Shown one piece after another: positions 12,675-60,815 of a stretch of 64,000 nucleotides of DNA. A model generated the notes under the pieces. The model worked only from the letters and a program-made list of their open reading frames with translations, did not search any database and was not told the origin of the DNA. The position numbers were made by a program, and so were the translations under genes. Position 1 is the stretch's first letter; every line of letters begins with the position of its first letter. The DNA is taken from the IMG/VR virus record IMGVR_UViG_3300031758_000002. The stretch is one strand, 5' to 3'. The stretch is from a virus (Duplodnaviria; Heunggongvirae; Uroviricota; Caudoviricetes).

Positions 12675-13300
12675 TACCCCAAACTTTCAGGATAATACAA
12701 TAATGTTGGGTTTTTTTTAGCGATGTCTATATCAGGAAATCTCTCCTTGAAAGTCTTAACATCAAACTTACCAGTTATCAAATGCCACCCATTCTTTGTT
12801 GGTATAACCGCTTCAATTTTTTTACCTTCAGGTTTAAGATAATTAATAAATTGTGATAGTTCAGTAACGGCATGAAAATCGGTTACGTCAATATCCACAA
12901 TCCACCGTTTCTCTTGAGTTTTAATTTGCCCAACAACTGAATCAAATAAACCTTTTTGGTTTGATACACCGTCTCTAATCCGTTCGGCAAGTATTGCCAA
13001 CATATTTAATGACACATCTTTGTGGTTTTGTTTTTGGACATGGATATATGCACGAGCCTTAAACATTTCACAAAGTTGTTTAATCTCATCATATCTTTTT
13101 TCCAAATATGGGATGGACTCAATACAATAAGTTTTAATTGTTCTTACTGATTGGTGATTATCCCTTTCACCTTCCGGTTGATCCTTCTTTCGTTTAAATA
13201 CATATAACATATAGAAGTCACCATAATGTGAAAAATTCAATAATGGTTTTATTAAATCTATGTTATCAATCTTGTTCATTTTCATCATCATAATATTCAT
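12674..13300 (-). CDS. hypothetical protein; weak AEP (primase-polymerase)-like motif pattern
   Basis: WIVDIDVTD (hhhDhD), TKNGWHLI (sGxGxHh-like) and PDIDIA. See findings. Confidence 0.3.
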   Translation of the reverse strand: MNIMMMKMNKIDNIDLIKPLLNFSHYGDFYMLYVFKRKKDQPEGERDNHQSVRTIKTYCIESIPYLEKRYDEIKQLCEMFKARAYIHVQKQNHKDVSLNMLAILAERIRDGVSNQKGLFDSVVGQIKTQEKRWIVDIDVTDFHAVTELSQFINYLKPEGKKIEAVIPTKNGWHLITGKFDVKTFKERFPDIDIAKKNPTLLYYPESLG

Positions 13301-13802
13301 CTACTTTCATTGAAACTGGTGGGGTGAAATCCCAAACAGTGTTTTCAAACTCTGTGATCCATTCATTCAATTCTTCTCTTGTCCAAAATGGAGCAAAATG
13401 TGGACGGTAACTAAACGGAACATTGTCTTTATTTTCCCAATCTTCAAGTCGTTGTGTTACATCCTCAATTAGGTTTTTATCCTTATTGTACTTATTCCAT
13501 TGTCTATAATCATCTTCGGATTTGATATACATAACATCACCATAATTATAAAAATCCATCTCAGGGAATTTCAAATTTGGGTTGTTGGTATATACATCAA
13601 CAATACCATTGTCTCCATTGTATTCACCACAAAGTTCTTTTAAAGAATGTAAACTACTTGGTCTTTCTTCCCACACACTACCGAACTGACGAACAGAACA
13701 GATATACAAATACCCATCATCATATGAATGAATAAGTCCTTCAATTTTATTTCTTAAAGAAATAAGTTCGTCCATTGTAAGTTTAGTTAAGTCCATTTTC
13801 AT
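13266..13802 (-). CDS. hypothetical acidic protein (178 aa)
   Basis: ORF. Confidence 0.35.
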   Translation of the reverse strand: MKMDLTKLTMDELISLRNKIEGLIHSYDDGYLYICSVRQFGSVWEERPSSLHSLKELCGEYNGDNGIVDVYTNNPNLKFPEMDFYNYGDVMYIKSEDDYRQWNKYNKDKNLIEDVTQRLEDWENKDNVPFSYRPHFAPFWTREELNEWITEFENTVWDFTPPVSMKVDEYYDDENEQD

Positions 13803-13860
13803 TTTACAAAAGTAATCATTTTATATTTACCAAACAATATTTTTGGATATTTATTTTAAT

Positions 13861-14310
13861 ATGAACCTACAAGAATCCATAAGAAGAATATTAAGGGAAG
13901 AAACCATAAAAGATAAATATAAAAAAGAATATATTAATTTTCATGGTAACATGGAAGGGTTTGATGACAATTGGGATAATCTGTTTAATAAAGATTTTAA
14001 TGATGGTGGTTTGATGAATATACCTGAATATATTGAATTGAGTAGATTAGTTAATATTATTGGGGAATTTAAAAAGGATAAAAATATACATTGGATAAGA
14101 ACCTCTGATGAATATTTATTTTACGATACGGATTGGTTGTTTTTATCCGATGTTAAAATAAATGATAACGCTAAAATAATCAGAATAAAAACACACAAAT
14201 CAAATATTAATTTAGATCAAACAATAATTCAAAATTTAACTTTTAATTATGAAAAAGAGATTACCTTGAAAAACTTGGATTTAGAAAATTATGAAATAAT
14301 AAAATATTAA
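13861..14310 (+). CDS. hypothetical protein, member of the N-terminal LQE-IRRILREE propeptide family (paralog of 14313..14639)
   Basis: ATGAACCTACAAGAA start shared with the next gene. N-terminus MNLQESIRRILREE. Confidence 0.45.
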   Translation: MNLQESIRRILREETIKDKYKKEYINFHGNMEGFDDNWDNLFNKDFNDGGLMNIPEYIELSRLVNIIGEFKKDKNIHWIRTSDEYLFYDTDWLFLSDVKINDNAKIIRIKTHKSNINLDQTIIQNLTFNYEKEITLKNLDLENYEIIKY

Positions 14311-14312
14311 AT

Positions 14313-14639
14313 ATGAACCTACAAGAAAACATAAGAAGAATATTGAGGGAAGAATTATTGAATGAAACAAAGTTCTTCCGTAGAAGAATTGATTTAGATG
14401 AGGTTAAGAAGTTACTTTCAATTAATGCACAACAAGTGTATTACGAAACTGAAAGTTATAGAGGTTTTAAATATGACTTAACTTTAAGAGCGGTAGAATC
14501 AATTATGTGGAATAATTATGAACTTGGGTGGGAGGATTTACCAGAACAAGAGGAAATAGACTTTGTGACAGAAGTTTCTGATATGCTTGAGGACACGATT
14601 AAACAGTTATACAAATTTTATCATAATAAAAGATTCTAA
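14313..14639 (+). CDS. hypothetical protein, paralog with N-terminal MNLQENIRRILREE
   Basis: First 14 aa nearly identical to the upstream gene. The rest is divergent. Confidence 0.45.
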   Translation: MNLQENIRRILREELLNETKFFRRRIDLDEVKKLLSINAQQVYYETESYRGFKYDLTLRAVESIMWNNYELGWEDLPEQEEIDFVTEVSDMLEDTIKQLYKFYHNKRF

Positions 14640-16128: not shown

Positions 16129-16151
16129 ATTACTTTTTAATAAAACAAAAA

Positions 16152-16184
16152 ACCTCCCAACATTTCTGAAGGGAGGTTAAATAT
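16152..16184 (-). terminator. rho-independent terminator (CCTCCC-loop-GGGAGG plus T-run on the minus strand)
   Basis: Downstream of the gene ending at 16203. Confidence 0.6.
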
Positions 16185-16202
16185 TTTTTATATGTTATAC
16201 TT

Positions 16203-16550
16203 TTAGTATTTAATAATCCAAGTCACTCCCTTTCCAAAATTGGGTGATGCATGAGAATTAATATCTTTAGATTCTAATGATTCTATTTTATCCATTATTT
16301 TTTCACGATTACCGTCAACAGGTGACGGTAATTGAGTAATAATGTATTTAACATATTTAGTATATTTAAGTTTCTTTCCTGAAACATCACCCTTTTTAAT
16401 CTCAATCTTACACCCACTAGGTAAACCCAATTTTTTTCTCAACTGAAAAACGGTTAAGTCTAATAAATCAGATTTAGATTCATTTTCTTTAATCACACGA
16501 TTAACAATTCTTGTCAAGTCTGATTCGGTTAGTTTAATTATTTTTTTCAT
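16203..16550 (-). CDS. small basic protein, tandem paralog 3 of the MKK(V/I)I(R/K)LTESDLTRIV family
   Basis: N-terminus MKKIIKLTESDLTRIVNRVIKEN. Confidence 0.5.
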   Translation of the reverse strand: MKKIIKLTESDLTRIVNRVIKENESKSDLLDLTVFQLRKKLGLPSGCKIEIKKGDVSGKKLKYTKYVKYIITQLPSPVDGNREKIMDKIESLESKDINSHASPNFGKGVTWIIKY

Positions 16551-16554
16551 ATCA

Positions 16555-16887
16555 TTATTTTATATAAAACCAAAATGAGTTTTTACTTGCGTTACCAAGT
16601 TTAAATAAGTTACTTTCAAATTTATTATTTAGTTTCTCAATGATTTCTTCAGCAATCTCTTCGGTGTCATCCCCCGATTGTTTAAAACTAACCATAAATC
16701 TGTCATATGGTTTATCTGACGATTCTTTATAACCACCTTTCCATTCATCCTCACCAATGTAATCATCCATAAGTTTTTTTAACACATCCTCAATTTTTTC
16801 ATTTGATGGTTTTTTCTTATTTTCATTGATCACTCGTTTAACAATCCTTGTTAAATCTGATTCGGTTAATCTTATTACTTTTTTCAT
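16555..16887 (-). CDS. small protein, tandem paralog 2 of the MKKVIRLTESDLTRIV family
   Basis: N-terminus MKKVIRLTESDLTRIVKRVINEN. Confidence 0.5.
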   Translation of the reverse strand: MKKVIRLTESDLTRIVKRVINENKKKPSNEKIEDVLKKLMDDYIGEDEWKGGYKESSDKPYDRFMVSFKQSGDDTEEIAEEIIEKLNNKFESNLFKLGNASKNSFWFYIK

Positions 16888-16891
16888 AACA

Positions 16892-17188
16892 TTAAATATC
16901 TAAATTTTTAACTTTAATTCCTTTTGTATTTCTTTTTAAACCTGATGGTGTTGTATCGTCAGTTCTAAAACTACAAACAACATCAAACATAGCTTTTTTA
17001 AAATGGTGGAATGTTCCTTTTTTTCCATGGTATTCACCCTTTATTTCCAATTCACCATAAACATCTTCCAATTCTTCTTTTGACATCTTTAATATTTCAG
17101 ATTTACTTTGTTTCTTTTTGGATTCGGTAATAACCCTTTGGATTATTCTTGTCAAGTCTGATTCGGTTAGTCTTATTACTTTTTTCAT
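16892..17188 (-). CDS. small basic protein, tandem paralog 1 of the MKKVIRLTESDLTRI family
   Basis: N-terminus MKKVIRLTESDLTRIIQRVITES. Confidence 0.5.
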   Translation of the reverse strand: MKKVIRLTESDLTRIIQRVITESKKKQSKSEILKMSKEELEDVYGELEIKGEYHGKKGTFHHFKKAMFDVVCSFRTDDTTPSGLKRNTKGIKVKNLDI

Positions 17189-17226
17189 TTTACAAATTTA
17201 TTAATAAATATCTGATTAAACAAAAA

Positions 17227-17256
17227 ACCCCACTCTTATTTGAAGTGGGGTTTGTA
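17227..17256 (-). terminator. rho-independent terminator (CCCCAC-loop-GTGGGG)
   Basis: AAAAAACCCCACTCTTATTTGAAGTGGGGTTTG, downstream of the gene ending at 17261. Confidence 0.6.
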
Positions 17257-17260
17257 AAAT

Positions 17261-17629
17261 TTATTTCTTAATCGGAACTGTGTCAACTGGTTCAAGTGTC
17301 ACTTTGGTGATTCCTTTTCTAATGAAGTTAAGTTCCTTTGCGGTTCCGTAACTCAAATCAATCACAAAACTTGATGATTTTGGTAACCTGTCGTTGATCT
17401 TAACATATCTAACAGAATCATTACTTGTGTTTGTTACTTTCACAATTGTTCCGAACTTAAAGTACTTATGAGCCGCAGTTAAACTGTCTTTGTGGAATAG
17501 TTCTCCTGATGATGTCTTTCTACCTGTCCAATGTTGTCCGTAATAAGATGCGGTTCCTGTGTAGATTTTTTCTGATGATTTAAATGATAATAGTGTAATT
17601 AGTGGAATAAATAATAATAGTTTTTTCAT
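17261..17629 (-). CDS. RlpA-like double-psi beta-barrel (DPBB) domain protein with signal peptide
   Basis: Signal peptide, then GTASYYG...GRKTSSGELF...AAH..FKFGT.VKVTN..N..SV.VKINDR, matching the RlpA / rare lipoprotein A consensus. Confidence 0.65.
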   Translation of the reverse strand: MKKLLLFIPLITLLSFKSSEKIYTGTASYYGQHWTGRKTSSGELFHKDSLTAAHKYFKFGTIVKVTNTSNDSVRYVKINDRLPKSSSFVIDLSYGTAKELNFIRKGITKVTLEPVDTVPIKK

Positions 17630-17674
17630 ATTATGAATAATAAAAAATCCTCCACAAAAGTGAAGGATTATATT

Positions 17675-18925
17675 TTACCGTTTAAATTTAAACTCTTTTT
17701 CTATTTTTCTTTTTCCGTATTTTTTCTCCATTATTTGTTGGTGTAACTCCCAATTAAGAATTGATTCGTTGGTTTGTTCTTTTTCGTCAGGAATAAGTGA
17801 ATATATTTTTACAAGTCGTTTAATTAATTTTGTTGCAACATAGTTAAATCTTTCACATTCATCAACAAAGAACTGACTTTCTCTATTACGATATTTGGCA
17901 AGTTGATTTAAATATTTATGTCTAACTTTTTCCAATCCTTCATCGTTCTCACGCTTAACACCCATACCTAACATTCTCATAAAATTAGCCATTTCACTAT
18001 CAACACTATCCGTCATTTTATCAAAAATATCTCTTTTAGCACTAATAAGATTAATATAAACTATATCCATAACTACCTTTATTTTTTCCTCTTCAGTCAT
18101 ATTTTCATAATCCACATCTGCGTGTTCTAATAAACCATCCACACGATCCATTTGATTATGTAATTCTTCCATAAAATGTTCAAAACTAAAATCTCTAATT
18201 TCTTTTAGTTCTTTAACAACACTATCATTTTCAAAAAATTCTCTAAACTTTTCTCTTGTTACTCCAGTTAATTTCATTCTTGTTGCCATTTCAGTTGGTC
18301 TAACAAGATTTTCAACATATTGAATGAAATAACTATATCTCATAAATTCACTAATAACCGGAATTCCGAAGTTTAACCCTTGACTTGCATATGCTTGATA
18401 ATCAGCATCTTTCCCTATCAAGTCAGTTGTCTTTTTTTGTTTATCAAACTTATGTTTAATTTCGTGAGCAATTACAGATATTAATTGAACTCTATCATTA
18501 GTAAAGTAATTATAAGGGTCTTGGGAATCCCAATCATCCCCATTTGATGCAAAATGTAATTGTAACTCAATTGTGTTATCCTGTTTATGAACCTTCATTA
18601 GTAGTTTTCTATCAAAATTAAATTGATTTGCAACACCGGCTGATATCATAGTGAATGGTCCATCATATTCATCCATTTCGTGAACTTGAACTGCTAACTC
18701 TAATTCGTGTATTTTATAATCAGATATTGTTAAATCTAAATTATCTTCAGTAAATGTTTGTGTTGTGTCGTAATCATCCATACCTTTTAATAGGTTTAAT
18801 ATGATTTCATATAGTTCTTCAGCCGATTCAATGATTCCTTCAGGAACTCCAACGGCTTCATTCAGTAAGAGATTATTTACAATAATCTCAAGTTGATTTT
18901 CAGTAATGATTAAATTTTTCTTCAT
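17675..18925 (-). CDS. HExxH zinc-metallopeptidase-like protein carrying the family N-terminal motif (MKKNLIITENQLEIIVNNLL)
   Basis: VIAHEIKHKF HExxH motif. The N-terminus is homologous to the MKKVIRLTESDL family. 416 aa. Confidence 0.45.
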   Translation of the reverse strand: MKKNLIITENQLEIIVNNLLLNEAVGVPEGIIESAEELYEIILNLLKGMDDYDTTQTFTEDNLDLTISDYKIHELELAVQVHEMDEYDGPFTMISAGVANQFNFDRKLLMKVHKQDNTIELQLHFASNGDDWDSQDPYNYFTNDRVQLISVIAHEIKHKFDKQKKTTDLIGKDADYQAYASQGLNFGIPVISEFMRYSYFIQYVENLVRPTEMATRMKLTGVTREKFREFFENDSVVKELKEIRDFSFEHFMEELHNQMDRVDGLLEHADVDYENMTEEEKIKVVMDIVYINLISAKRDIFDKMTDSVDSEMANFMRMLGMGVKRENDEGLEKVRHKYLNQLAKYRNRESQFFVDECERFNYVATKLIKRLVKIYSLIPDEKEQTNESILNWELHQQIMEKKYGKRKIEKEFKFKR

Positions 18926-18951
18926 ACATATAAATATAAAGGAGTTGTGAT

Positions 18952-19633: not shown

Positions 19634-20224
19634 ATGAAAAAGTTTTTATTATCCTTATTTTTTATTTTCCCTTTTATTTTATTATCTCAAAAACCATTAA
19701 GAGATAGTGTAATCATTAAAAGTGATATTTTTACCGTTGTTTATTCTGAGAAATTAGAACAACCTTTATCTGTGAGTTATACCGTGGATTGTCCGTCAGG
19801 TAATGCATCAAGATCTGGTATGGATTTCTTCACTTGTGATTCTGTTAAAACATCTGACTCAAAAGATTATGAAAATAACATTTGGGACAAGGGACATATG
19901 GCACCTGCCGCAGATTTTAATTGTGATAAGATTATGTTAAAGAAAACATTTAGTTACCTTAACTGTACATTACAACAACAAGATCTCAATAGAACCACTT
20001 GGCGTTTATTAGAAGCGTATGAAAGAGAATTGGCATTAAAGTATGAGGTGTCTGTTATTGTAATTTGTGTATTTTCAAAAAAATCCACAATACTCAAATC
20101 AGGCGCCACGGTTCCTGATGGATATTATAAGAAAATAACTTATAATGGTAAAACAGAAACTTATTACTTTAAAAATGAAAAACCTTCAACAACCGATTTT
20201 AAAAAGTTTTTGGTTAAAGGTTAA
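19634..20224 (+). CDS. secreted DNA/RNA non-specific endonuclease (Serratia NucA / EndoG family)
   Basis: Signal peptide MKKFLLSLFFIFPFILLSQ. Catalytic-region motif NIWDKGHMAPAADF (DRGH-type). Start set at the internal Met after antisense overlap with the neighbouring gene. Confidence 0.65.
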   Translation: MKKFLLSLFFIFPFILLSQKPLRDSVIIKSDIFTVVYSEKLEQPLSVSYTVDCPSGNASRSGMDFFTCDSVKTSDSKDYENNIWDKGHMAPAADFNCDKIMLKKTFSYLNCTLQQQDLNRTTWRLLEAYERELALKYEVSVIVICVFSKKSTILKSGATVPDGYYKKITYNGKTETYYFKNEKPSTTDFKKFLVKG

Positions 20225-20637: not shown

Positions 20638-20660
20638 AGGAACCTAAGTTCCTTTTATTT
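20638..20660 (-). terminator. rho-independent terminator (GGAAC-loop-GTTCC)
   Basis: AAAAAAAGGAACCTAAGTTCCTTTTATTTT, downstream of the gene ending at 20660. Confidence 0.55.
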
Positions 20661-21520
20661 TATTGTGGTCTGTTTTGTAGATTTGATACAAACTTAGCCG
20701 CCTCTAAACCTTTATCAATCATTTGTTGTTTTGATGGTACCAATTCTAAATTCTTTTCAGTTTCAATAGTACCAATTGGTTTAAGTTCCAACTTTGATAT
20801 TGGTTCCAATCCTTTACATTCAATATTTAATTTATCAATAGCCTTTTGGAATTTAGGTGTCGTCAATTCACACCATGTTTTTTTATCAGTTTGTTTAGTT
20901 GTGTACCATTTTCCATCATCAGTTTTTGCATACATCCAAGTTTTATCATTCGGAATATAACAAACTTGCTGATTTGTGAATTCTTTCTCAACAAATTTAC
21001 ATCTATTATCTGTTTTTGGTTTTTGTTCTTCACCACCACCTCCAACTACTTTATCAGATTTTAATTTATTTCCATCACAGAATAATTTATTCATTGCAGT
21101 TTTAAATGGTTGTCCAGTCATTACAATTTGTTCGTAAGTTTGTTCACTACCTTCAAATCTTAATAAATAATCACCACAAATAAATTTCCCTTTAGACCCT
21201 GATTTAACCAAAGGACCTGTAAATTTACCTGTTGAGTCTTCTTTTTTATAGTAAACATCTACGGATAGACTTTTACCGTCGGTATTTTTTTTCACTGTCT
21301 CACCTTTTTTAATGTAAACTCTAGGTGCACTACCCCCATACTGAATTGCGTGTACTGTAAACTCTTGAAGATTCTTAATTGTATATGTTCCATCATCATT
21401 CAATGTTTGTTCAGAGATAACATCTTTTTTTACACCATATTGCGATAATATGTCTTTTTTTTCTTGTTCGGAAATTAAAATTCTTCTGATATTCATAACT
21501 TTTTTATTTATAAATATCAT
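20660..21520 (-). CDS. hypothetical protein. N-terminus contains the NIRRILISEQ variant of the family motif; probable start at Met9 (21496)
   Basis: MNIRRILISEQEKK resembles MNLQENIRRILREE. Confidence 0.4.
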   Translation of the reverse strand: MIFINKKVMNIRRILISEQEKKDILSQYGVKKDVISEQTLNDDGTYTIKNLQEFTVHAIQYGGSAPRVYIKKGETVKKNTDGKSLSVDVYYKKEDSTGKFTGPLVKSGSKGKFICGDYLLRFEGSEQTYEQIVMTGQPFKTAMNKLFCDGNKLKSDKVVGGGGEEQKPKTDNRCKFVEKEFTNQQVCYIPNDKTWMYAKTDDGKWYTTKQTDKKTWCELTTPKFQKAIDKLNIECKGLEPISKLELKPIGTIETEKNLELVPSKQQMIDKGLEAAKFVSNLQNRPQ

Positions 21521-23357: not shown

Positions 23358-23657
23358 ATGACATCAAAAGACACTCAACAAGGTATGATGGGTAAAAAAT
23401 TTGATGATACATTTGATGGAATGTTATTTATAATGAATGATAGTGAACATTCTTTTTGGATGAAGGATTGTATAATTCCTTTGGATATTATCTATATAAG
23501 TAACAATACTATTGTTAAGATACATCATAACTGTGAACCTTGTACTTCTAACCCATGTAAGAGATATCCTGGTAATGGTGATATGATATTAGAAGTTATG
23601 GGCGGAACCTGTGAAGAATATGATATTACAAAAGGAGATAGAGTATACTTTGATTAA
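23358..23657 (+). CDS. DUF192 (COG1430) domain protein
   Basis: GMLFIMNDSEHSFWMKDCIIPLDIIYISNN.IV.I...EPC......YPGNGDMILE matches the DUF192 consensus. Divergent from the Nudix gene. Confidence 0.55.
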   Translation: MTSKDTQQGMMGKKFDDTFDGMLFIMNDSEHSFWMKDCIIPLDIIYISNNTIVKIHHNCEPCTSNPCKRYPGNGDMILEVMGGTCEEYDITKGDRVYFD

Positions 23658-25066
23658 CCTTCTTGAACTTTCTCTTTCAATAATCTAACAAATTCATTCT
23701 GAATCATTTTAGTAAATTTCACATACGCAGCGTCCTCATTTTCAGAACTATATTTGTATTTCCCTTGAGGTGGTCTTTTACTTCTACCCATATAATTTAA
23801 TCCCGAAATGTTAGTTATACATTTATGTCCTCCACTATTTGATTGGATAATGTCCCAAGCAGTTACGGTAACACTATCAAGTAAACTCATCTCTTCATCA
23901 GTTAAATCGGTAAATGATTTTGACATTGCCGTATCAATATCTCTCATAAAATCTTTACCGTCTTTTGATTTGAATTTATCTCCGTATAACGCTCTAAAAT
24001 CTTTATATGTGAACCCAACAGATTCAGGTGTAAATCCTTTTCCTGATTCTGATATCCACTTAATTGTTGATAATGGAATATCCCTATCTTTTAATTGTGA
24101 TTCCCATTTTCCTAATACTTCATCTTTAATCTCACCTAAGTTAACTCCTTTAAGTGCTCTTTCTTTTTTGAATGGGTTACAGGATGCTTGAACCAATCCT
24201 AACGGCCAAGCAATAACTAAGAAGTCGGCATCAGGATTATTTCTAAATGGGGTGTATCTATCATAAGAACCTGGTTTCATCATTGATCCACCACCATATT
24301 GTACAATAATGTTGTCATCAATTTTAACATTAGGATGTGACTTCATCGTTTGGACATACATTTCCTTATTCTTTTCAAGATCTCCAACCTCAGCGTATCC
24401 TTTACTCATCATTTGTCCTCTAATATTATTCAGGATACTCATTAATGATGGATTTGCGGTTAAAACAATTTCTTCAAGAAAACCTGGTTTATTTTTATAT
24501 GCTAATAATAGTTTATTAACAACCAACCCCATTAACATTTTATTTCTTTGTAATGTTTTATCCTTATCTAATTTGAATAGGTAGTTCATCACTTGTTCAG
24601 GTGCGATATCGTGTTTTGCATAATCTGCAGAATCCACAGTTGATATTAATGTAATGTCTTCAGGTGAGAAAATATCTTTAGGTGATATTGTTTGAGATAT
24701 TGTTTCAACATTCGATCTTGATGATCTAAAACTTGTTGATGTTCCTTGTTCAACTCCGGCTTGAGTATCGTGGTGATCGGTATGAATAACAAACATTGGT
24801 TTTCCGTGGGCAAAATCTACCAGTACAGGCATTGTATCACCTTCAGCATCTAATTTCTTAACTGAAAATTCTTTATCCCCGTATTGGATTATTTCGGCAT
24901 CAACAACTTTAATACCATTATTCTCCAAATAGTGTTTCATTGCAAGTGCGGTAGTAACACCATCTAAATCTTGGTGAAAATATATTTTAGCTTTAGGGTA
25001 TCTTTTAGCTAATTTGTTAATATCCCTTAATCCTGATTCTAATATTAAATTTTTTCTCATAACCAT
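23654..25066 (-). CDS. DHH/DHHA1-family phosphoesterase (RecJ/NrnA-like)
   Basis: DHH motifs FHQDLDGV and VIHTDHHD. DHHA1-like GGGH motif in SNSGGHKCI near the C-terminus. 470 aa. Confidence 0.65.
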   Translation of the reverse strand: MVMRKNLILESGLRDINKLAKRYPKAKIYFHQDLDGVTTALAMKHYLENNGIKVVDAEIIQYGDKEFSVKKLDAEGDTMPVLVDFAHGKPMFVIHTDHHDTQAGVEQGTSTSFRSSRSNVETISQTISPKDIFSPEDITLISTVDSADYAKHDIAPEQVMNYLFKLDKDKTLQRNKMLMGLVVNKLLLAYKNKPGFLEEIVLTANPSLMSILNNIRGQMMSKGYAEVGDLEKNKEMYVQTMKSHPNVKIDDNIIVQYGGGSMMKPGSYDRYTPFRNNPDADFLVIAWPLGLVQASCNPFKKERALKGVNLGEIKDEVLGKWESQLKDRDIPLSTIKWISESGKGFTPESVGFTYKDFRALYGDKFKSKDGKDFMRDIDTAMSKSFTDLTDEEMSLLDSVTVTAWDIIQSNSGGHKCITNISGLNYMGRSKRPPQGKYKYSSENEDAAYVKFTKMIQNEFVRLLKEKVQEG

Positions 25067-25478: not shown

Positions 25479-26027
25479 ATGAAAGTATCCAACATTTTAA
25501 AATTGGTATACTTGATGGGATGTCTTGTTACCATTATTACCTTATCAGGTATGTCAACGATTGAGATTCAATCTAATAGTAAATTCACGAATGAAGGATC
25601 AGGTATTCCAAATTCACCAATTTCTATTCGGATGTATGAATGTATTGAGAAATACTCTGATGAATATAACATTCCTAAGTATGTTGCATATAATGTGGCG
25701 TATAAAGAAACAACATACAGAGGTCCTTTTGATTGGAGGTACAATCCCGAAAGAATCTCTTGTGTTGGGGCTTTGGGTCCGATGCAGATTATGCCTATGA
25801 CATCTTATTCAATTAATAAAGTAAAATATTCAAATCATAAAATTATGACTGATATTGAGTTGAACATTAGGACAAGTATGAAACTTCTACGAAAACTTTA
25901 TAATAAATACGGTGACTGGAATGTTGTTTGTGGTTGTTATAACACGGGTAGACCTATTGTAAATGAGTATGGTAGGTATTGTGGAACTAACAAAAATTAT
26001 AAGTCAAAGTGGTTATCACTTAAATAA
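25479..26027 (+). CDS. lytic transglycosylase (SLT domain) with N-terminal membrane anchor
   Basis: AYKETTYRG...GALGPMQIMPMT resembles the SLT catalytic region (E-S/T...GA.G.MQ..P.T). Confidence 0.55.
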   Translation: MKVSNILKLVYLMGCLVTIITLSGMSTIEIQSNSKFTNEGSGIPNSPISIRMYECIEKYSDEYNIPKYVAYNVAYKETTYRGPFDWRYNPERISCVGALGPMQIMPMTSYSINKVKYSNHKIMTDIELNIRTSMKLLRKLYNKYGDWNVVCGCYNTGRPIVNEYGRYCGTNKNYKSKWLSLK

Positions 26028-26969: not shown

Positions 26970-27296
26970 TTAGTGTCCGTAATCAATAGGTAAATATCCA
27001 CTCAAATTATAGGTTTCTTCCAACCATATTTTTAGAATATCTTGTATTTGTTCATATTCCATATCAAAAATGGATTCAAAAAATATCCAAATTCTTGTGT
27101 AATCAATAAAAACAAACTTATTTTTATCATCTTGATAATAGTAAAATAACGGTTTTTTATCCTTATTAACATAAAATGTTCTATCATAGTTAACAACCTT
27201 AGTTAGATTACCGAATTTATTATTCAACCAATTTAACGCCAGTCTGTCCCTTTTATTTTCCGTTATAATTATTTTCATATATGAATAAATATCCAT
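26970..27296 (-). CDS. hypothetical protein. Internal Met gives MKIIITENKR, family-like; probable start 27278
   Basis: ITEN motif as in MKKNLIITENQL. Confidence 0.35.
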   Translation of the reverse strand: MDIYSYMKIIITENKRDRLALNWLNNKFGNLTKVVNYDRTFYVNKDKKPLFYYYQDDKNKFVFIDYTRIWIFFESIFDMEYEQIQDILKIWLEETYNLSGYLPIDYGH

Positions 27297-27332: not shown

Positions 27333-28181
27333 TTAGAGTTGTTCTTCTTTTATTTCCTGTAAGGTTTTAAAGTAATTTACTCTCGTATTGGCTATCTCGG
27401 TATAGTTTGGTGATAACTCAATACCTAACCATCTTCTTCCCAATACTTCAGCGGCAACTAATGTTGTTCCACTACCAGCGAATGGATCTAAAATCACATC
27501 GTTTTTGTAGGATAATATTTTGATCGCTTTAGTTGGGATGTCCATTGAGAACGTCGCCTTGGTGAGTGATTTAGTATCTGCAAAGTAATTCCACTGACCA
27601 AAAACAAGTTCCATAAACTCCTTCTTATCTTGTTCTTCATATACAACTTTCTTTTTTATGGTTCCATCCTCCTGTTCAATTTCAGTAGGTGTCCCTTTCC
27701 ACTGAGGTTCTCCCTTAACCTTTTTAATGTGGTGTTTTTTGTATGCAAGTATTACACACTCCTTTGGATTATAAATATACGGACTTGACGGACTCATCCA
27801 AGATCCCCAAGCAGTTGTTTTACTACGATGAGGTGAATCTTCTTCTAAATCCACGATACCGAAGAAACCAAACCCAATTTGTTTCATTAATTGATACATT
27901 TCAGAAACAAAGAAAATTCTTCCCCCTTTCTTTTGTCTATTGATTTCATATGGAATATTCAACGCGATTCGTCCATCATCTTTCAAAACATTATATGCTT
28001 CAGTTAACCAATTTTTGGCAAATACCAAATACTCCTCAAACTCCACATCATCATCGTGGGTATCATACGCAATCCCGACTCCGTAGGGTGGTGATGTGAC
28101 GATTAAATCCACAGACCCTTCAGGTAATGTTTTCATCACCTCAATACAATCTCCTGTTATTATTTTTCCTGTTTCTATCAT
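27333..28181 (-). CDS. DNA methyltransferase, beta-class N6-adenine/N4-cytosine (pfam01555-like)
   Basis: Motif IV DLIVTSPPYGVG comes first, then motif I ILDPFAGSGTTLVAAEVLGRRWLGIELS. That order defines the beta class. Confidence 0.8.
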   Translation of the reverse strand: MIETGKIITGDCIEVMKTLPEGSVDLIVTSPPYGVGIAYDTHDDDVEFEEYLVFAKNWLTEAYNVLKDDGRIALNIPYEINRQKKGGRIFFVSEMYQLMKQIGFGFFGIVDLEEDSPHRSKTTAWGSWMSPSSPYIYNPKECVILAYKKHHIKKVKGEPQWKGTPTEIEQEDGTIKKKVVYEEQDKKEFMELVFGQWNYFADTKSLTKATFSMDIPTKAIKILSYKNDVILDPFAGSGTTLVAAEVLGRRWLGIELSPNYTEIANTRVNYFKTLQEIKEEQL

Positions 28182-29017
28182 TTTTTCTCCAATGTTTCAA
28201 TGTGGTGTTGCAAATACCACAATGCTTTTTTAAGATCCTGTAATTCTTTATCTAACTCTTTCTTACCCGCTCTTGAGATATACTTCACAGTATTACCAAG
28301 GGAGAATCCTAAGTCCCAAGCATCAATCACCTTGATTGCTTCATATGGGTTTGACTCTCCCCCATAGTGGTTAGGGTGATTTACTTGTTCCTTTTTTTCT
28401 TCCATTTCTTTTTTCTTTTTGTGAGCCCAAAATACTCCATCAATATGATAGGTATTAAATCCTTGCCAGTCAAATGATTCAATTACATTATTAACACCTT
28501 CAGTAGGATCTTTTGAGGACTTATAATCATCCAAATATACAATACCATCATCATTAATAAAATTAATCACATTATTAATATCACCTCTAACGCATTCCTC
28601 AAAGTGGCACCCATCAATCTCAATAAAATCAAATTTTGTTTTTGATGTGTCTAAAACTCTTGGAACAACCTCAAGGGAGTTACCAGGAAATAAACTCAAA
28701 TGTATGTTCCACTTCCTGTAATGCTTGGCAAGTATTGAGTGATTGTTAACAGTACTCTCATATTTACAGTCATCAAATACAAAAACAATTATTGGTTTCC
28801 TATTAAAATCAGGATCTTCATTAATTATTTTCAATAATGTCTCACATATTAAAACCATTGAATGTCCTTCATTGAATCCTATTTCAATAATATTTCTTGG
28901 TTTAATTTGGTATACCAAATCTTGTAGGGTATGAATCCTTTCTGGGTACCAACTAATGTTACCCTCACCCTTACCAAACATCATTCCGGGTAATTTGTTA
29001 AATATATTATTTTCCAT
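28178..29017 (-). CDS. class I SAM-dependent methyltransferase-like domain fused to a C-terminal DUF3310 domain
   Basis: Motif I-like IIEIGFNEGHS and acidic FDFIEIDG / VYLDDY. The C-terminus (HPNHYGG...YEAIKVIDAWDLGFSLGNTVKYISRAGKK...DLKKALWYLQHHI) matches DUF3310 as I remember the family. Confidence 0.5.
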   Translation of the reverse strand: MENNIFNKLPGMMFGKGEGNISWYPERIHTLQDLVYQIKPRNIIEIGFNEGHSMVLICETLLKIINEDPDFNRKPIIVFVFDDCKYESTVNNHSILAKHYRKWNIHLSLFPGNSLEVVPRVLDTSKTKFDFIEIDGCHFEECVRGDINNVINFINDDGIVYLDDYKSSKDPTEGVNNVIESFDWQGFNTYHIDGVFWAHKKKKEMEEKKEQVNHPNHYGGESNPYEAIKVIDAWDLGFSLGNTVKYISRAGKKELDKELQDLKKALWYLQHHIETLEKK

Positions 29018-30206
29018 TTAAATCAAATTTAATTTCTTTTGTAGGGATATTACTTCCATCCATTGTTTTACCATCCAATTCAAATTCTTCATCATTGAAG
29101 TATTCTTTTAATAGTTCATCGGTTGGGATTGTTTTATAATCCATCTTAAGGTTGTCCATATCAAGTTTATAATTCATTTTATGTTTGATGTCGTCAATCT
29201 CTTCAGCGTTTCTTAATGATTCACATATTTGATAAATGATTTTATATGGATCAGCATTAGATGATGGTCGTCTATCTTCAACATATCCCTTCCATTCTTT
29301 TGCGGTTGATTGTGGAACTCTAATTGATGCACCTCTATCTGAAATACCCCAACTAAACTTATTAATTGATTGGGTTTCAAATTTACCCGTCAATCTTAAT
29401 TCATTTGATGAACCATAATTTTCAATATGTTCTTGGTGTCTTGTGGCAAAACTTGAGAAAATTGATTTAAAATGATTTTCACCACCTTCTTCCCTCATTT
29501 TATAATTTGAGAAGTTTGTGTGAAGTCCAGATCCATTCCATTCACCTTTTTGGATTGGTTTTGGGTGTAGTTCAATCCCATAATTATATTTTTCGGACAA
29601 CTTATGTAATAGGTATCTAGACATCCATAAATCATCTCCTGATTTCAATTTACCTTGAGAGAATACTTGATACTCCCATTGTCCAAGTGCAACCTCGGCA
29701 TTTATTCCTGTTATGTTAATCCCATACCTTAAACATAAATTCATATGTTCTTCAACAAATTCTCTACCCGCAACATATTCTCCAACACCACAATAATATT
29801 TACCTTGTGGTTCCAAGTTGTTTTCATCGTGGCCTAAAATACATTTATTTTTTCTATCATAGATAAAGTATTCTTGTTCAAAACCAAACCACAAATCCTC
29901 TTGTTCATTACCAAGTAATGATCTGGTATTTGATTGATGTGGTGTTCCGTCTGAATTCATAACCTCACAAAGAACATACACACTACCAAATTTATCATCC
30001 AAATAATGTCTTACAGGTTTTAAAATACAGTCTGAAGTCCCAGTTTCTGCTTGGTTTGTTGATGATCCGTCAAAGTTCCATTCAGGAAATCTACCCGTTA
30101 TAAATGAATTTTTTATGTCATCGTAATTAACAATTTTTACCTTACTTCTTAAATTTGGTTCCGGCATATATCCGTCTAACCACAGATATTCAAGTTTAAT
30201 CTTCAT
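29007..30206 (-). CDS. glutamine synthetase, type II (eukaryote/GlnII-like)
   Basis: GSII signatures EYLWLDG (YIWIDG), GKYYCGVG (GPYYC), FEQEYF, EWNGSGLHTNFS and ASIRVPQ. 399 aa. Confidence 0.8.
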   Translation of the reverse strand: MKIKLEYLWLDGYMPEPNLRSKVKIVNYDDIKNSFITGRFPEWNFDGSSTNQAETGTSDCILKPVRHYLDDKFGSVYVLCEVMNSDGTPHQSNTRSLLGNEQEDLWFGFEQEYFIYDRKNKCILGHDENNLEPQGKYYCGVGEYVAGREFVEEHMNLCLRYGINITGINAEVALGQWEYQVFSQGKLKSGDDLWMSRYLLHKLSEKYNYGIELHPKPIQKGEWNGSGLHTNFSNYKMREEGGENHFKSIFSSFATRHQEHIENYGSSNELRLTGKFETQSINKFSWGISDRGASIRVPQSTAKEWKGYVEDRRPSSNADPYKIIYQICESLRNAEEIDDIKHKMNYKLDMDNLKMDYKTIPTDELLKEYFNDEEFELDGKTMDGSNIPTKEIKFDLNGK

Positions 30207-31320: not shown

Positions 31321-32829
31321 TTATTTATCGGTTATCATTACAACATAACTTTGGTTACCCAAATTAATAATATCATATGTTGAGTCGTAACCATTCAAAA
31401 TACCATAATCCTCATCACCAGCAACATCTTCAATAAATGCCTTTTCATCAATAAAATTATCAACATCCATGTCGTAATTTCTCAACCAACTTATAGGGTC
31501 ATTAGAAATTTCGTATTTTTTATCTTCAACCCTTTCTTCAACCGAATCTTCATCCAAATCACCATCAGGATTTTCTTCAATTTCTTGTATTTCATATTCA
31601 ATATCAGAAATTCTACTTTCACGATCATCTTGGTGATCGTCAGTGTCTTCATCATCATATAGTTGACCTGGTTGAACTATCGATCCGTCTTTATATAATA
31701 CCCACTTATTTCCTTCATATTTTAATTGAAATTCGTGTTCTTCATCTTCATCCCAAAAATCAAATACAGTTCCATTTTCTTCTTTTGTTGGGTACTTTAT
31801 TGGAAACCTGACTCCTTCATTTTCATAAACCCATTTCTCCATTTTAAGAACCCAAAGTTCATCTTTTTGACTTCTACTTAAATCTTTTACAACGTCATAA
31901 TTATCAGGATCATCATATATCCATTCTCTAATAACATCTTCAAAATAGTCGGCAACCTCATCACCATCAATATGTCTTTCAACCGTATATTGATTAAAGT
32001 GTCTATATCCTCCATCATCCAATAATTGTTCAACCCATTCTTTTTTTGATTCATCCGCTTCATATTCGGTTCCAACGGCAATTGTCACATCATTAAAATC
32101 ATCATATGTTGTCATAAAAGATAACATATTATAATGTCCAAAACTTTTGGGTATCAATCCATAAACATCATTATTTTCCTTTCTTAATAAATCATCAATG
32201 TCTTCTTGTAATTCATCGTATTCACTTTGCAATTCAGATAAAAGTTCCTCATCATTTTCCGCTTCCATTCTATCAGAAATATTAAGTTGTCTTTGTTCTA
32301 AATTTTTTAATTCTCTTTTTTCTTCTGATGTTATTTCTTCTATCTCACCATTTTCAACAAGGTACTGAAACGCAGCATTTGCTTTTAATCCCTCATCATC
32401 AATGTTCGGATAATCTAAGTCCCACACACCATTTTCTCTTCTTTCTTGGGCATCATCCAATTCTTTTCTTCGTTTCCTTATCTTTTCTTTAGACTCCAAT
32501 GGTGTATTATAGTACCATTTAGACCCCGTAATTGTCACACCATTTAAAGTTTCTAACTTTGATCTAGTTGCCTCTAATGATCCTTGTAGATATATTGTTC
32601 CAAGATTTGTAACTGGTTTACCTGATATATCTAACCTACCGTTTACTTTTATTTTCTTACCTCTAAACCTTCTTGTCTTTTCAAGAGCCGCACCATTATA
32701 TCCAGTTACAGATAATAACTGTTCATATTCATTTGCGGGAATTTCAATAAATTCAGATTCTTCTTCGTTGAGTTTAGTTTTAATTATTTTAATTAAATCT
32801 GATTCGGTAAGTCTAATTACTTTTTTCAT
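31321..32829 (-). CDS. large acidic protein (502 aa) with family N-terminus MKKVIRLTESDLIKIIKTKLNEE
   Basis: First 13 aa identical to the tandem triplet at 16.2-17.2 kb. The rest is highly acidic (D/E-rich). Confidence 0.5.
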   Translation of the reverse strand: MKKVIRLTESDLIKIIKTKLNEEESEFIEIPANEYEQLLSVTGYNGAALEKTRRFRGKKIKVNGRLDISGKPVTNLGTIYLQGSLEATRSKLETLNGVTITGSKWYYNTPLESKEKIRKRRKELDDAQERRENGVWDLDYPNIDDEGLKANAAFQYLVENGEIEEITSEEKRELKNLEQRQLNISDRMEAENDEELLSELQSEYDELQEDIDDLLRKENNDVYGLIPKSFGHYNMLSFMTTYDDFNDVTIAVGTEYEADESKKEWVEQLLDDGGYRHFNQYTVERHIDGDEVADYFEDVIREWIYDDPDNYDVVKDLSRSQKDELWVLKMEKWVYENEGVRFPIKYPTKEENGTVFDFWDEDEEHEFQLKYEGNKWVLYKDGSIVQPGQLYDDEDTDDHQDDRESRISDIEYEIQEIEENPDGDLDEDSVEERVEDKKYEISNDPISWLRNYDMDVDNFIDEKAFIEDVAGDEDYGILNGYDSTYDIINLGNQSYVVMITDK

Positions 32830-32923
32830 ATTTTATAAATATTATTGATATACCAAAATTATTTACAAAATACATTCTATTAAGATATTTATAAGAAAAT
32901 AAACCTAATAAAAACAATCAGCT

Positions 32924-37044: not shown

Positions 37045-38889
37045 TTAGTCTCTTGAAATATAGTAAAAACCATCACCTTCTTCAACCATCATATTCTTTA
37101 ATCTTTCAGGTATTACAACACTTGGATTTGATCCCGATAACGCAATAAGATCCAAATACTCTAAATCCGCTAAAGACTCAGGTAGACTTTGAAGATTTTT
37201 ATTATTCTGTAATGTTAGGAATGTTAATCCTTCCATTCTTCCTAATTCTTCAGGTAGTGATTTTACACAATTCTCAAGTACCAATGCTATTATATTTGTA
37301 AACTTACCAATGCTTGCCGGTATATCCAAATCAAGAGAATCGTTTGATTTATTTGATATTGTTAAATATGTAATACTTTCAGGTAAATTTTCAAATAATT
37401 CATCAAAACCAAACAATGCAATATATTTTGATGACGCATCATTCGGGTATGTAATCTTAACAATGTTGTCACCTTCTGTTGCCAACTGTCCGGCATATTT
37501 AACCTTAAGTTCTTCCTTAAGATTTTTCATTCCCGGCATATTAATCAAAGCAATATCCGCGGTGGTAAGATTATTTAAAGTTTTGGTTCTCAACGAATCA
37601 ATCTTTCTTGCCAAATAATATTTAACAACATCAGGTTCTGAACTTGTAATCATATCACCTGTTAAATCCATACCCAAAGAAATATATTTCTTTTTAAGTT
37701 CTGAAGGTAAATTAATATAAACTCTTGGTTTGTTTGTTAGGTTTGGACTTGCAATTTCTAACCAAAACTCAGCATCTTCAACCGAACCAAGTTCTTTAAC
37801 TGCATCGTCTTGAACATTAATATGTTTGTATTTTCTTAATAATCCTTTTTCTCTATCAGTAAGTGGATCTGGAGTAAATAAGTATTCTTTGTCTTTTAAC
37901 TTCGGAACTTTAGATGAGATTGTATCCCAAGTCTCTGTTCTGTGTCCTGAATATCCACCAGCCATGTTTTTACCATCGGCAATTCTTTTTCTTCCATACT
38001 CATCAACCAAGATAACAACCGCGAAGTTCAAATCATCAAATGGGGTATCTCTGTCAATAACATAGTAAAGTGTTAAGTTATTTTCCAAACGATAGTTGTA
38101 ATATAAGTTACCACCACCAATTCTTGATGTACACCAAGGTCTTCCATGTGCTAATCTAATACATTGTTCTTTACCGTTTGGTTTGAAGATATACAAATTA
38201 TCTTTATCGTAGATTGTTTCAATATCTTTAAAGTCGTCACCTTTTTTCTTTGGTGTATCATCTCCGTCAGGTAAATGATCCAATGCCGCCTCCAACTCAT
38301 CAAATGACATTAACATAATCGGTGGCGTATTTGCTTCCAATCTATCATACAAATCAACATATCTTTCAATGTAAGAAAGTATTTGCTCGTTTGTTAAATC
38401 GTTTCTTTCTTTCTTATATTTTTCAAATGCCGCCTTGGTAATAATTCCACCAAATTTATTTTGTATCAATTCAACCAACTTCAAATAAGGGTATCTCATA
38501 ATATCCCTATTAGGTTCAGGTAGATAATTTCTTATCTCTAAGAATTTCTTAATCATAGACTTAACTTGTCTTTGATCAGAACCTTTACCAGGACCCTTCA
38601 TATAGGTTTTAAATATATCACCTTCTTCCTTCTTAACTCTTTTTGATAAAATCACAGACTTAAGTTGATCATATGTATATTTTGTAATGTCTCGTTTGTC
38701 GGCAGGTAATCCGTTTTTATATTTATCAAAATCACCAATATAACTTTTAATATCATCCTCAGAATCTTTAGTTTCGTTACTAAATTTAAGGACAAGTTGA
38801 TTCATTAATTTATTTGATATTTCTGTTAATCTAAATTTAGGATCAACATTTTCTACGATTACCGATGATAAAATTTTTACTAATTTCAT
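37045..38889 (-). CDS. large protein with a central FKP-WCTS-YY domain (paralog of 9200..10174) and C-terminal leucine-rich repeats
   Basis: LRR-like LxxLxLxxN repeats (LTYLTISNK, LTFLTLQNNKNLQSLPESLADLEYLDL). Shared core NLYIFKP...RPWCTS...YY.Y...YYVID. Confidence 0.45.
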   Translation of the reverse strand: MKLVKILSSVIVENVDPKFRLTEISNKLMNQLVLKFSNETKDSEDDIKSYIGDFDKYKNGLPADKRDITKYTYDQLKSVILSKRVKKEEGDIFKTYMKGPGKGSDQRQVKSMIKKFLEIRNYLPEPNRDIMRYPYLKLVELIQNKFGGIITKAAFEKYKKERNDLTNEQILSYIERYVDLYDRLEANTPPIMLMSFDELEAALDHLPDGDDTPKKKGDDFKDIETIYDKDNLYIFKPNGKEQCIRLAHGRPWCTSRIGGGNLYYNYRLENNLTLYYVIDRDTPFDDLNFAVVILVDEYGRKRIADGKNMAGGYSGHRTETWDTISSKVPKLKDKEYLFTPDPLTDREKGLLRKYKHINVQDDAVKELGSVEDAEFWLEIASPNLTNKPRVYINLPSELKKKYISLGMDLTGDMITSSEPDVVKYYLARKIDSLRTKTLNNLTTADIALINMPGMKNLKEELKVKYAGQLATEGDNIVKITYPNDASSKYIALFGFDELFENLPESITYLTISNKSNDSLDLDIPASIGKFTNIIALVLENCVKSLPEELGRMEGLTFLTLQNNKNLQSLPESLADLEYLDLIALSGSNPSVVIPERLKNMMVEEGDGFYYISRD

Positions 38890-40023: not shown

Positions 40024-40536
40024 GTGGGGTTTCTTGTATTTATATTATATATGAATTTATTACCATTACTTAAGAGTATAATTGTTGAGAGTGTTCCTAT
40101 TAAAAATGTTACCATTAATGGTCAACCATTGAGTATCGTTCAAACTTATGAATCTTTCCGAGCTATTACCGGTAGTGGTGAATTTATTAGAGTCCCAACG
40201 GATGAAATCATGGACTCAATGTCGGACATATACGATGTTTTAATTAATCAATCATTTATTTTATTTAATACCTGTAAACATAAATGTGCATTATTGATTC
40301 GTGATTACCGTTTAGGTTTTGATTATCAATTATTTACTCATTACAACATAAAAAATAATAATCTTAAAATAACAATAAATACCTCAATCCGTCACCCAAA
40401 AAAATTATTCAATAATGTTAACACTAGAGAGATTATAATAACAAGAAATGATGATATTGTGATAAGAGAATCAATTATTAACCAATCATTCACTTATAAA
40501 ATAATTGGTGATATAATTATTTATTATCAAAAATAA
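40024..40536 (+). CDS. hypothetical protein (170 aa)
   Basis: ORF. Confidence 0.35.
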   Translation: MGFLVFILYMNLLPLLKSIIVESVPIKNVTINGQPLSIVQTYESFRAITGSGEFIRVPTDEIMDSMSDIYDVLINQSFILFNTCKHKCALLIRDYRLGFDYQLFTHYNIKNNNLKITINTSIRHPKKLFNNVNTREIIITRNDDIVIRESIINQSFTYKIIGDIIIYYQK

Positions 40537-60728: not shown

Positions 60729-60815
60729 AAATTATAATATAAACATAAATTATGGAATAATCAAACTTCACAAGTTTTTACATTCCTTTATATTTATCTA
60801 AGATAACAATAGTAA

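Follow-up and report, generated by a model that had tools for sequence, protein, structure and literature searches.

A conserved 22-residue leader on variable phage proteins, a probable capsid-targeting propeptide in uncultured T4-type phages

Three adjacent small genes, g98, g110 and g115, lie at positions 16203-17188 of a 64-kb stretch of viral DNA (IMG/VR record IMGVR_UViG_3300031758_000002, Caudoviricetes), which is called here the window; it has 30.7% GC and its phage genes are mostly on the minus strand. The three proteins begin with nearly the same 22 residues, the leader. We consider it probable that this N-terminus is a capsid (prohead-core) targeting propeptide, a functional counterpart of the capsid-targeting sequence (CTS) of phage T4, cut after Glu22, and that the bodies behind it are packaged and ejected. 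Physical packaging, cleavage at Glu22 and ejection are steps that we infer. A likeness to the T4 internal proteins had been proposed in an earlier, sequence-only reading of the window, and it is now the best-supported explanation, given the T4-type lineage with its PF03420 protease, the gp21 motif at the end of the leader, the virion promoters, the slot of gp67/68 and the avoidance of the protease motif in the bodies.

In the mechanism that we propose, the leader genes would be transcribed from a virion-class promoter along with the head genes, and the amphipathic, basic leader helix would dock each protein on the scaffolding core of the assembling prohead. A gp21-type serine protease (PF03420) would then cut after the invariant Glu22 of ...[KR][KR][IV][IL]-x-E, and the freed mature bodies would remain in the head with the DNA, to be ejected into the next host. 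Since the tag alone would suffice for delivery, the bodies would be free to vary; they would diversify, swap or fuse, giving arrays such as g98-g110-g115.

Results

The triplet operon and the leader copies of the window

The three genes are on the minus strand. The first one, g98 (16892-17188), encodes 98 amino acids (aa), with leader codons 1-22 at 17123-17188 (MKKVIRLTESDLTRIIQRVITE) and a basic body of 76 aa; g110 (16555-16887) encodes 110 aa, with its leader at 16822-16887 (MKKVIRLTESDLTRIVKRVINE) and an acidic alpha/beta body of 88 aa; and g115 (16203-16550) encodes 115 aa, with its leader at 16485-16550 (MKKIIKLTESDLTRIVNRVIKE) and a basic body of 93 aa. The spacers between them are of 4 nt each. 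The triplet is one operon between two intrinsic terminators, that of the upstream DPBB gene (17225-17253, minus strand), which insulates the operon, and another directly after the g115 stop (16142-16187, minus strand; dG -19.2 kcal/mol, z -4.3, with a U-run). The operon has a putative promoter of the virion/late class, the motif ATATTTAT at 17204-17211 (minus strand), which precedes the g98 ATG by 23 nt.

The earlier reading had described three adjacent genes of 98-115 aa with near-identical N-termini, and both coordinates and lengths were exact. It gave the shared part as the first 20 residues; the near-identity stands, and the span is of 22 residues. The three N-termini follow MKK[VI]I[RK]LTESDLTRI[VI]xRVIxE with a pairwise identity of 17-19/22, and any other pair of N-termini of window open reading frames (ORFs) has at most 8/22 identical residues. 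The triplet is real, although it is not the sole carrier of the leader. When the window was compared with a hidden Markov model (HMM) of the leader, five significant matches were obtained (the triplet, g502 and g416; E 7e-17 to 7e-13), the next one having E = 0.64. The gene g416 (17675-18925, minus strand; 416 aa) carries a diverged leader, MKKNLIITENQLEIIVNNLLLNE, followed by A, and has the promoter motif at 18930-18937; g502 (31321-32829, minus strand), which encodes a very acidic protein of 502 aa, carries the leader MKKVIRLTESDLIKIIKTKLNE, followed by E, with the promoter motif at 32835-32842.

Distribution and anatomy of the leader

Neither Pfam nor PHROG contains a family covering the leader. 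A leader search of 5.8 billion proteins returned hundreds of matches with unrelated continuations, and of 1.84 billion cluster representatives, scanned exhaustively with HMMER, about 5,400 matched at E <= 0.001, nearly all of them from residue 1. In IMG/VR more than 597 matches to the leader pattern were found, on contigs of up to 322 kb. From 1.5 Mb of fetched loci we harvested 201 distinct leader proteins (37-593 aa), 190 of which start exactly at the Met; the genes are often in arrays, with up to 9 per 20 kb. In cellular genomes (596 Gbp) the leader is essentially absent, the sole matches being in Bacteroidota or Bacteroidales contigs of metagenome-assembled genomes (MAGs). A full-text motif search found no published description of the leader, and the papers on Far-T4 phages do not mention it (PMC4360716, PMC7198788).

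The leader logo and the clustering of the bodies were based on 188 leader proteins. The information content is of 3-4.3 bits per position through residue 22, falls to 1.35 bits at residue 23 and is below 0.75 bits from residue 24. The exception near the end of the leader is the poorly conserved residue 21 (1.5 bits), which is the X of the gp21 motif. The pattern [ILVM]-x-E occupies residues 20-22 in 184/188 leaders, with Glu22 in 185/188 and I, L, V or M at P3 in 187/188; E9, D11 and E22 are invariant. The leader helix is amphipathic, with a hydrophobic moment of 0.59 and a net charge of +3, and the hydrophobic h-region of a Sec, Tat or lipoprotein signal peptide is absent from it (maximum 10-residue Kyte-Doolittle value of 0.41). 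Scans of the leader proteins found no MuF domain in them, and no other Pfam domain in the leader.

Behind the leader, the 188 bodies fall into 140 BLAST clusters, with 109 singletons, a diversity like that of the T-even internal proteins. The domain PG_binding_1 was recognized in 4/148 leader-protein cargos, and nearly all other cargo domains are of no known family. Some bodies have hydrophobic segments, a ParB-like motif or extreme acidity; most are soluble and many very acidic. In addition, many database proteins carry a second, internal leader besides the N-terminal one, or have an extra domain in front of a Met-less leader. In these fusions the core LTESDLxRIVKRVIxE is kept, as would be expected if the internal copy still acts as a cleavable tag, and such proteins may be polyprotein-like precursors. 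In-frame fusions with a second internal core or a Met-less leader were recorded in P0257, P0260, P0284, P0290, P0337 and P0361-P0373, as well as in L098 (7528-8997) and L132 (14402-15097), and one fusion protein terminates in a C-terminal leader.

Selection on the leader

Synonymous sites of the leader are near saturation (mean proportion of synonymous differences, pS, 0.57, versus 0.20 for nonsynonymous ones, pN). Every Leu, Ser and Arg codon family is used, including TTA/CTT/CTA, TCA/AGT and AGA/CGT/CGA, and identity is 0.58 at third codon positions versus 0.83 at second positions. The saturation of synonymous sites, with the amino acids held, shows that the constraint is on the peptide and not on the DNA or RNA; it also shows that a recent duplication cannot explain the conservation of the leader. 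Between g110 and g98, pN/pS is 0.06/0.76 in the leader and 0.41/0.77 in the next 31 codons. Compared with the body, the leader has an approximately 7-fold lower nonsynonymous rate (dN) and an equally saturated synonymous rate (dS). The proposal that the leader is under selection, and is not the remnant of a recent whole-gene duplication, was thus borne out by this comparison and by its occurrence on about 5,400 unrelated clusters.

Bodies of the triplet proteins

The complete divergence of the bodies that had been described holds for g115, which has the leader alone in common with g98 and g110, but not for the other two. The bodies of g98 and g110 keep a similar segment of 31 residues after the leader (Smith-Waterman z = 5.1, p ~0.0005). 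On sensitive comparison of profiles built from database homologues, these two aligned with E = 1.5e-5 and 79.5% probability in HHalign, without any alignment past the 31-residue segment; the g115 body matched neither of the other two (E = 0.026 and 0.23). The common segment with an unrelated remainder makes g98 and g110 look like an old tandem duplicate, and their C-terminal parts were probably replaced or diverged later. The basic character attributed to the three proteins was confirmed for the bodies of g98 and g115 (isoelectric point, pI, 9.4 and 9.6), but not for that of g110, which is acidic (pI 5.0), nor for the family, whose median body pI is 5.65.

The AlphaFold2 (AF2) model of g110 (pLDDT 79.6) consists of a detached leader helix (residues 9-22), a six-residue coil (23-28) and a compact alpha-beta-beta-alpha-beta-beta body. 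With this model, Foldseek found nothing significant in PDB or BFVD (E >= 0.02, TM < 0.5). For g98, the model shows a leader helix at 9-25 and a small beta-sheet, with a low confidence (pLDDT 63), too weak for a structure search. No family was found in the Pfam and PHROG scans of the triplet, g416 and g502.

Lineage, protease and probable host

Genes identical to those of the window were found on metagenomic lake contigs of up to 210,524 bp. With T4 head proteins as queries, a T4-type head module was detected in the leader-bearing loci L084, L072 and L065, with terminase, portal, the small ORFs p238 and p155, a gp21 homologue, an acidic scaffold and a gp23-type major capsid protein (MCP). The database annotation of leader-bearing contigs includes PF03420 (Peptidase_S77), Portal_T4, Gp23 and Terminase_6N. 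Leader genes occur together with PF03420, Portal_T4 and Gp23 on the same contigs in L084/L097, L065, L072, L034/L148, L098, L134, L136 and L166, and likewise in the variant clade that is described below. The MCP has an invariant ...S[FHY]LINE, then [AS]T, about 12 residues before the conserved VVFPIVRR block, and this LINE-[AS] site corresponds to the ...FLTE-A cleavage site of T4 gp23. A homologue of ribosomal protein S21 (PF01165) was also observed inside the head module, on the opposite strand between p238 and p155 (L176, 9231-9425, minus strand, and equivalent positions elsewhere).

The nearest cultured MCPs are remote: those of Flavobacterium phage immuto and Microcystis phage Mel-JY01 have about 43% identity over one third of the protein, and that of RM378 has 35%. 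We therefore assign the lineage to the uncultured Far-T4 phages, whose presumed hosts are Bacteroidota (PMC4360716, PMC7198788). The hosts are probably Bacteroidota, on account of the SprB-like repeats in flanking structural ORFs, the TAnnTTTG boxes before early genes and the cellular matches in Bacteroidota or Bacteroidales MAG contigs.

The 10 kb that adjoin the window on its right contain large structural ORFs only, and the contigs of the window and the head loci do not overlap. A gp21 gene on a long contig was considered as the window's own protease and was ruled out, as it belonged to a different phage. The window genome is linked to a T4-type head module indirectly, by the same leader, the promoter motif, the lineage, the structural ORFs to the right and the T4-type early genes.

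Avoidance of the protease motif in the mature bodies

The T4 protease gp21 cuts after L/I-X-E and recognises little beyond this motif, Asp at P1 prevents processing, and the propeptides of the internal proteins (Ips) are capsid-targeting sequences (PMC9026906). We measured the depletion of this motif in 180 mature bodies against composition-preserving shuffles. The bodies are depleted of [IL]-x-E (observed/expected 0.76, z -4.8) and of hydrophobic-hydrophobic-x-E (0.63, z -3.6), and enriched for [IL]-x-D (1.28), [IL]-x-K (1.16) and [IL]-x-Q (1.21). As a control, the non-leader ORFs of the same loci gave 1.16 for the Glu form and 1.14 for the Asp form, and length-matched small genes of the window showed no depletion (1.22). 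The variant clade repeats the depletion, with 0.72 and 0.47 versus 1.29 and 1.30 in its controls. The density of sites per 100 aa is high in proteins bound for degradation (MCP propeptide 8.3, p238 4.3, scaffold 2.4), while it is 0.57 in the mature MCP, 0.90 in the portal and 0.90 in the leader bodies, against 1.58 in ordinary window genes. This Glu-specific avoidance indicates that the bodies bear the signature of proteins surviving exposure to a Glu-specific protease with a hydrophobic P3.

Promoter class of the leader genes

The motif [AG]TATTTAT[AT] was found 12-30 nt before the ATG in 58% of the leader genes, often right after a terminator, with a background of 0.9%. It also precedes 43/43 p238 genes and most of the gp21, scaffold and portal genes. 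In the window the motif lies before all three leader transcription units, and in the flanks before the large structural ORFs on the right; of the named early or metabolic genes, 0/20 have it. Sharing this motif with head and structural genes places the leader genes in the virion expression class, and their TATTTATA-type promoter would presumably be a late one. The motif resembles a reversed T4 late box (TATAAATA). There is also a second promoter class, with Bacteroidota-type TAnnTTTG boxes before early genes (DnaJ, AAA_33 kinase and DUF932, for instance). Promoter sites occur throughout the window, for example at 17204-17211, 18930-18937 and 32835-32842 on the minus strand, and at 13847-13854 and 60790-60797 on the plus strand. 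The TAnnTTTG box, that of Bacteroidota sigma-A, was rejected as the promoter of the leader genes, being present in 9/186 of them only.

Head-module synteny and the variant leader

A scan of genome contigs yielded a variant leader in rumen and gut contigs. It has a four-residue insertion and 26-27 aa, M(N)KK[LI]IRLTESDLHRIVKESV[NK][RK][IV]L[KR]E, and ends in hydrophobic-hydrophobic-x-E. If the leader is a gp21-type CTS, the phages carrying the variant should be T4-type as well. This prediction was upheld: in loci chosen by the variant leader alone, portal, PF03420-like protease, scaffold and MCP are frequently present. In an unbiased, protease-selected sample of this rumen/gut sister clade, 1-4 leader genes stand between portal and protease in 38/63 head modules, and elsewhere within +-8 kb there are just 3. 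The portal-protease interval is the T4 slot of the prohead-core genes 67 and 68 (order 20-67-68-21-22-23). Strong head-module synteny is confined to this sister clade. A conserved acidic leader family of about 124 aa (...E, then [GD][VI]LGNDW...NNYEPFE...) stands there between p155 and the protease (L204, L208, L211, L220, L226, L228), and it is a candidate functional analogue of T4 gp67/gp68.

Discussion

The leader resembles the CTS of the T4 proteins IPI, IPII, IPIII and Alt in being a short, putative N-terminal propeptide on otherwise unrelated small proteins, ending in the gp21 motif hydrophobic-x-Glu (PMC9026906, PMC3012670, PMC12373910), and in belonging to a T4-type phage with PF03420 protease, scaffold and gp23-type MCP. 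As in the polymorphic Ip loci of the T-even phages, the genes stand in tandem or in variable cassettes, outside the head module or inside it, and their bodies are hypervariable (PMC12373910, PMC3012670). The scale is different: here there are about 5,400 clusters, with as many as 9 genes in 20 kb, while T4 has Alt and 3 Ips, and the T-evens together at least 10. Other differences from T4 are the multi-leader fusions, a P1' that is rarely Ala and hosts that are probably Bacteroidota, the present system being known from its sequences. The principle, then, is already known from T-even phages; new are the sequence and length of the leader, the scale, the fusions with several leaders and the lineage of Bacteroidota phages.

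Many head-internal proteins of phiKZ, 201phi2-1 and SPN3US (inner-body and ejection proteins) are cut after Glu by a gp21-related protease and then ejected, and form large cargo sets (PMC9026906, PMC5694885). Their sites are S/A/G-X-E and their propeptides are long and non-uniform, with no shared leader, whereas here P3 is I/L/V/M and the leader is uniform. With T4 gp67/gp68 the likeness is in the portal-protease position in the sister clade and in the one leader family that is conserved, small and acidic; no sequence similarity was detected, and gp67/68 are conserved core components that are degraded, unlike most leader bodies, which are variable and avoid cleavage sites. MuF-domain polymorphic toxins and the Dar proteins of P1 likewise combine a constant head-association module with a variable injected effector. 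MuF is a domain of more than 100 aa, unlike the 22-aa helix described here.

Several observations weigh against a capsid-targeting propeptide. The leader is of 22 (or 26-27) residues, versus 10-19 in the T4 CTS, and is far more conserved, with about 20 near-invariant positions. Pfam, PHROG and tblastn searches against phages revealed no sequence similarity between the two, so that they are not homologous in sequence. Among deposited phages, neither DNA nor tblastn searches brought up a close relative or a cultured phage with the leader. The residue at P1' after Glu22 is Q, N, S, E or D versus Ala at the MCP site, and an internal-protein set with dozens of cargo genes in each genome would be unusual in its size. 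The window's own head module and protease are not in the window or its 10-kb flanks, and the top 120 gp21 homologues are not on the contigs of the window. In the freshwater clade of the window, leader genes were found in 2/77 unbiased, protease-selected head modules, and the position between gp21 and scaffold seen in L084, L072 and L065 was accordingly downgraded as a typical one. Finally, the five leader proteins of the window, too few by themselves, show no depletion of [IL]-x-E (19 observed versus 18.5 expected), the signal being at family level only.

Part of the evidence would suit a leader that is an uncleaved docking or oligomerisation helix for another late structure (tail, baseplate, assembly factory or chaperone), its carriers being virion-associated proteins or assembly factors. 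Late-type promoters and head-module synteny go no further than co-expression and a connection with morphogenesis, a specific protein-protein interface would be in keeping with the very high conservation over the 22 residues, and P1' is unlike that of the MCP site. We nevertheless regard such a helix as unlikely, since it leaves unexplained the invariant Glu22 with a hydrophobic P3 and a free P2, the depletion in the bodies of [IL]-x-E but not of [IL]-x-D, and the positional equivalence to the T4 core genes 67/68 beside the protease. The amphipathic character of the helix (moment 0.59, net charge +3) could also be that of a membrane-targeting or unconventional export signal, by which late proteins would reach the envelope to serve in lysis, superinfection exclusion or cell-wall remodelling; some cargos carry PG_binding_1 (4/148) or hydrophobic segments, and a DPBB lipoprotein and an SLT gene are among the neighbours. 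This seems improbable to us, as the helix has no hydrophobic core (Kyte-Doolittle maximum 0.41), E9, D11 and E22 are invariant, and most bodies are soluble and many very acidic. From a signal of this kind one would expect neither the protease-motif ending nor the avoidance of the motif nor the synteny with the head module, and peptidoglycan- or membrane-binding cargo suits ejected proteins equally.

The two remaining explanations deny the peptide a role of its own. The conserved 5' segment could be a DNA or RNA element (a cassette recombination site, a translation-initiation enhancer or a regulatory RNA) that encodes the peptide incidentally. Leader genes do lie in indel-prone cassettes with a conserved promoter just upstream of each, and shared 66-nt segments could promote recombination; it is nonetheless very improbable, being largely refuted by the near saturation of synonymous sites (pS 0.57; identity 0.58 at third positions versus 0.83 at second ones) and by the conservation of internal leader copies in fusion proteins. 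Scarcely any weight is left for a triplet that arose by recent tandem duplication, with N-termini that have not yet diverged and no functional leader. The 31-residue segment common to the g98 and g110 bodies and the 4-nt spacers would agree with it, but leader dS is as saturated as body dS with dN about 7-fold lower, the g115 body is unrelated, and the same leader heads thousands of unrelated proteins on hundreds of contigs; duplication is thereby refuted as a sufficient explanation.

Returning to the capsid-targeting propeptide, a broader proposal, which we find slightly more doubtful than probable, is that of a lineage-wide cargo-loading code. Any protein with (R)LTESDLxRIVKRVIxE, N-terminal or internal in a polyprotein-like fusion, would enter the prohead as cargo, be set free by the maturation protease and be injected. 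In this way thousands of distinct effectors (peptidoglycan-binding, membrane-inserting or extremely acidic and DNA-mimic-like) would be delivered by Far-T4-type Bacteroidota phages of lakes, rumen and gut. An anti-restriction, anti-defence or host-takeover role of the bodies is suggested by analogy only. If the tag is a head-loading signal, a 22-residue motif predicts thousands of injected-protein candidates in abundant uncultured Bacteroidota phages of freshwater and gut, and the leader bodies, which would be the first phage proteins meeting the host defences, make a list of candidate anti-defence and envelope-acting effectors. The T4 Ip paradigm, a handful of coliphage proteins, would then be extended about a thousandfold. 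Such a system would be a capsid-borne "secretome" that can be predicted just from the sequence, with a logic comparable to that of bacterial secretion systems and their signal-tagged effectors. As a well-defined targeting peptide, the leader would also lend itself to the packaging of foreign proteins in phage heads, and the signature of protease-site avoidance could serve as a general computational way to recognise proteins residing in the maturing capsid.

A second leader class and other features of the window

Two adjoining genes on the plus strand (13861-14310 and 14313-14639), with the promoter motif at 13847-13854, have a second class of leader, MNLQE[SN]IRRILRE followed by E. In related loci this class, MNL[QK]E[SN]I[RK]RILRE and then E, heads at least 20 unrelated bodies of 80-618 aa. 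A conserved MCP-adjacent protein has the N-terminus ...IIKKILRE, then ATSDSSG, and both this protein and the second class have the core [KR][KR][IV][IL]-x-E in common with the main leader. A third gene of the second class in the window (20660-21496, minus strand) begins with MNIRRILISEQ. The pattern [ILVM]-x-E occurs within residues 5-25 in 72% of 674 other ORFs that follow the late-type motif, versus 32-35% in control windows. Five window genes behind the late-type motif have short hydrophobic-x-Glu starts: 23654-25060 (minus; MRKNLILE), 26970-27278 (minus; MKIIITE), 37045-38889 (minus; MKLVKILSSVIVE), 40051-40536 (plus; MNLLPLLKSIIVE) and 44108-45457 (minus; ...FRKVLTE). Judging from these starts, they may encode further propeptide-bearing virion proteins.

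The triplet belongs to a variable block of 2.8 kb (16129-18951, minus strand) that comprises g416, the DPBB lipoprotein gene, g98, g110 and g115. The block is missing between conserved flanking genes in the related contigs L048 and L258, and in L019 the g98 orthologue is present alone, which points to cassette turnover. Secreted proteins that act on the envelope or on nucleic acids are encoded near the leader genes: the DPBB/RlpA-like lipoprotein (17261-17629, minus strand), an Endonuclease_NS protein with a signal peptide, behind a late-type motif (19634-20224, plus strand), and an SLT lytic transglycosylase (25479-26027, plus strand). Homologues (~43% identity) of a 178-aa ORF at 13266-13802 (minus strand) adjoin leader-gene arrays in at least nine other loci (L025, L031, L037, L038, L041, L057, L063, L090 and L091).

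DNA methyltransferase (MTase) genes are unusually dense in the window (27333-29017, 38939-39778 and 51974-52885 on the minus strand, among others), with matches to several PHROG MTase families. The window also contains a glutamine-synthetase-like gene (29007-30206) and a pair of RNA ligase and polynucleotide kinase (PNK) genes. Two long contigs with window genes, of 130,586 bp and 210,524 bp, both stop near window positions ~420-700, which suggests a genome terminus or an assembly-breaking repeat at that place.

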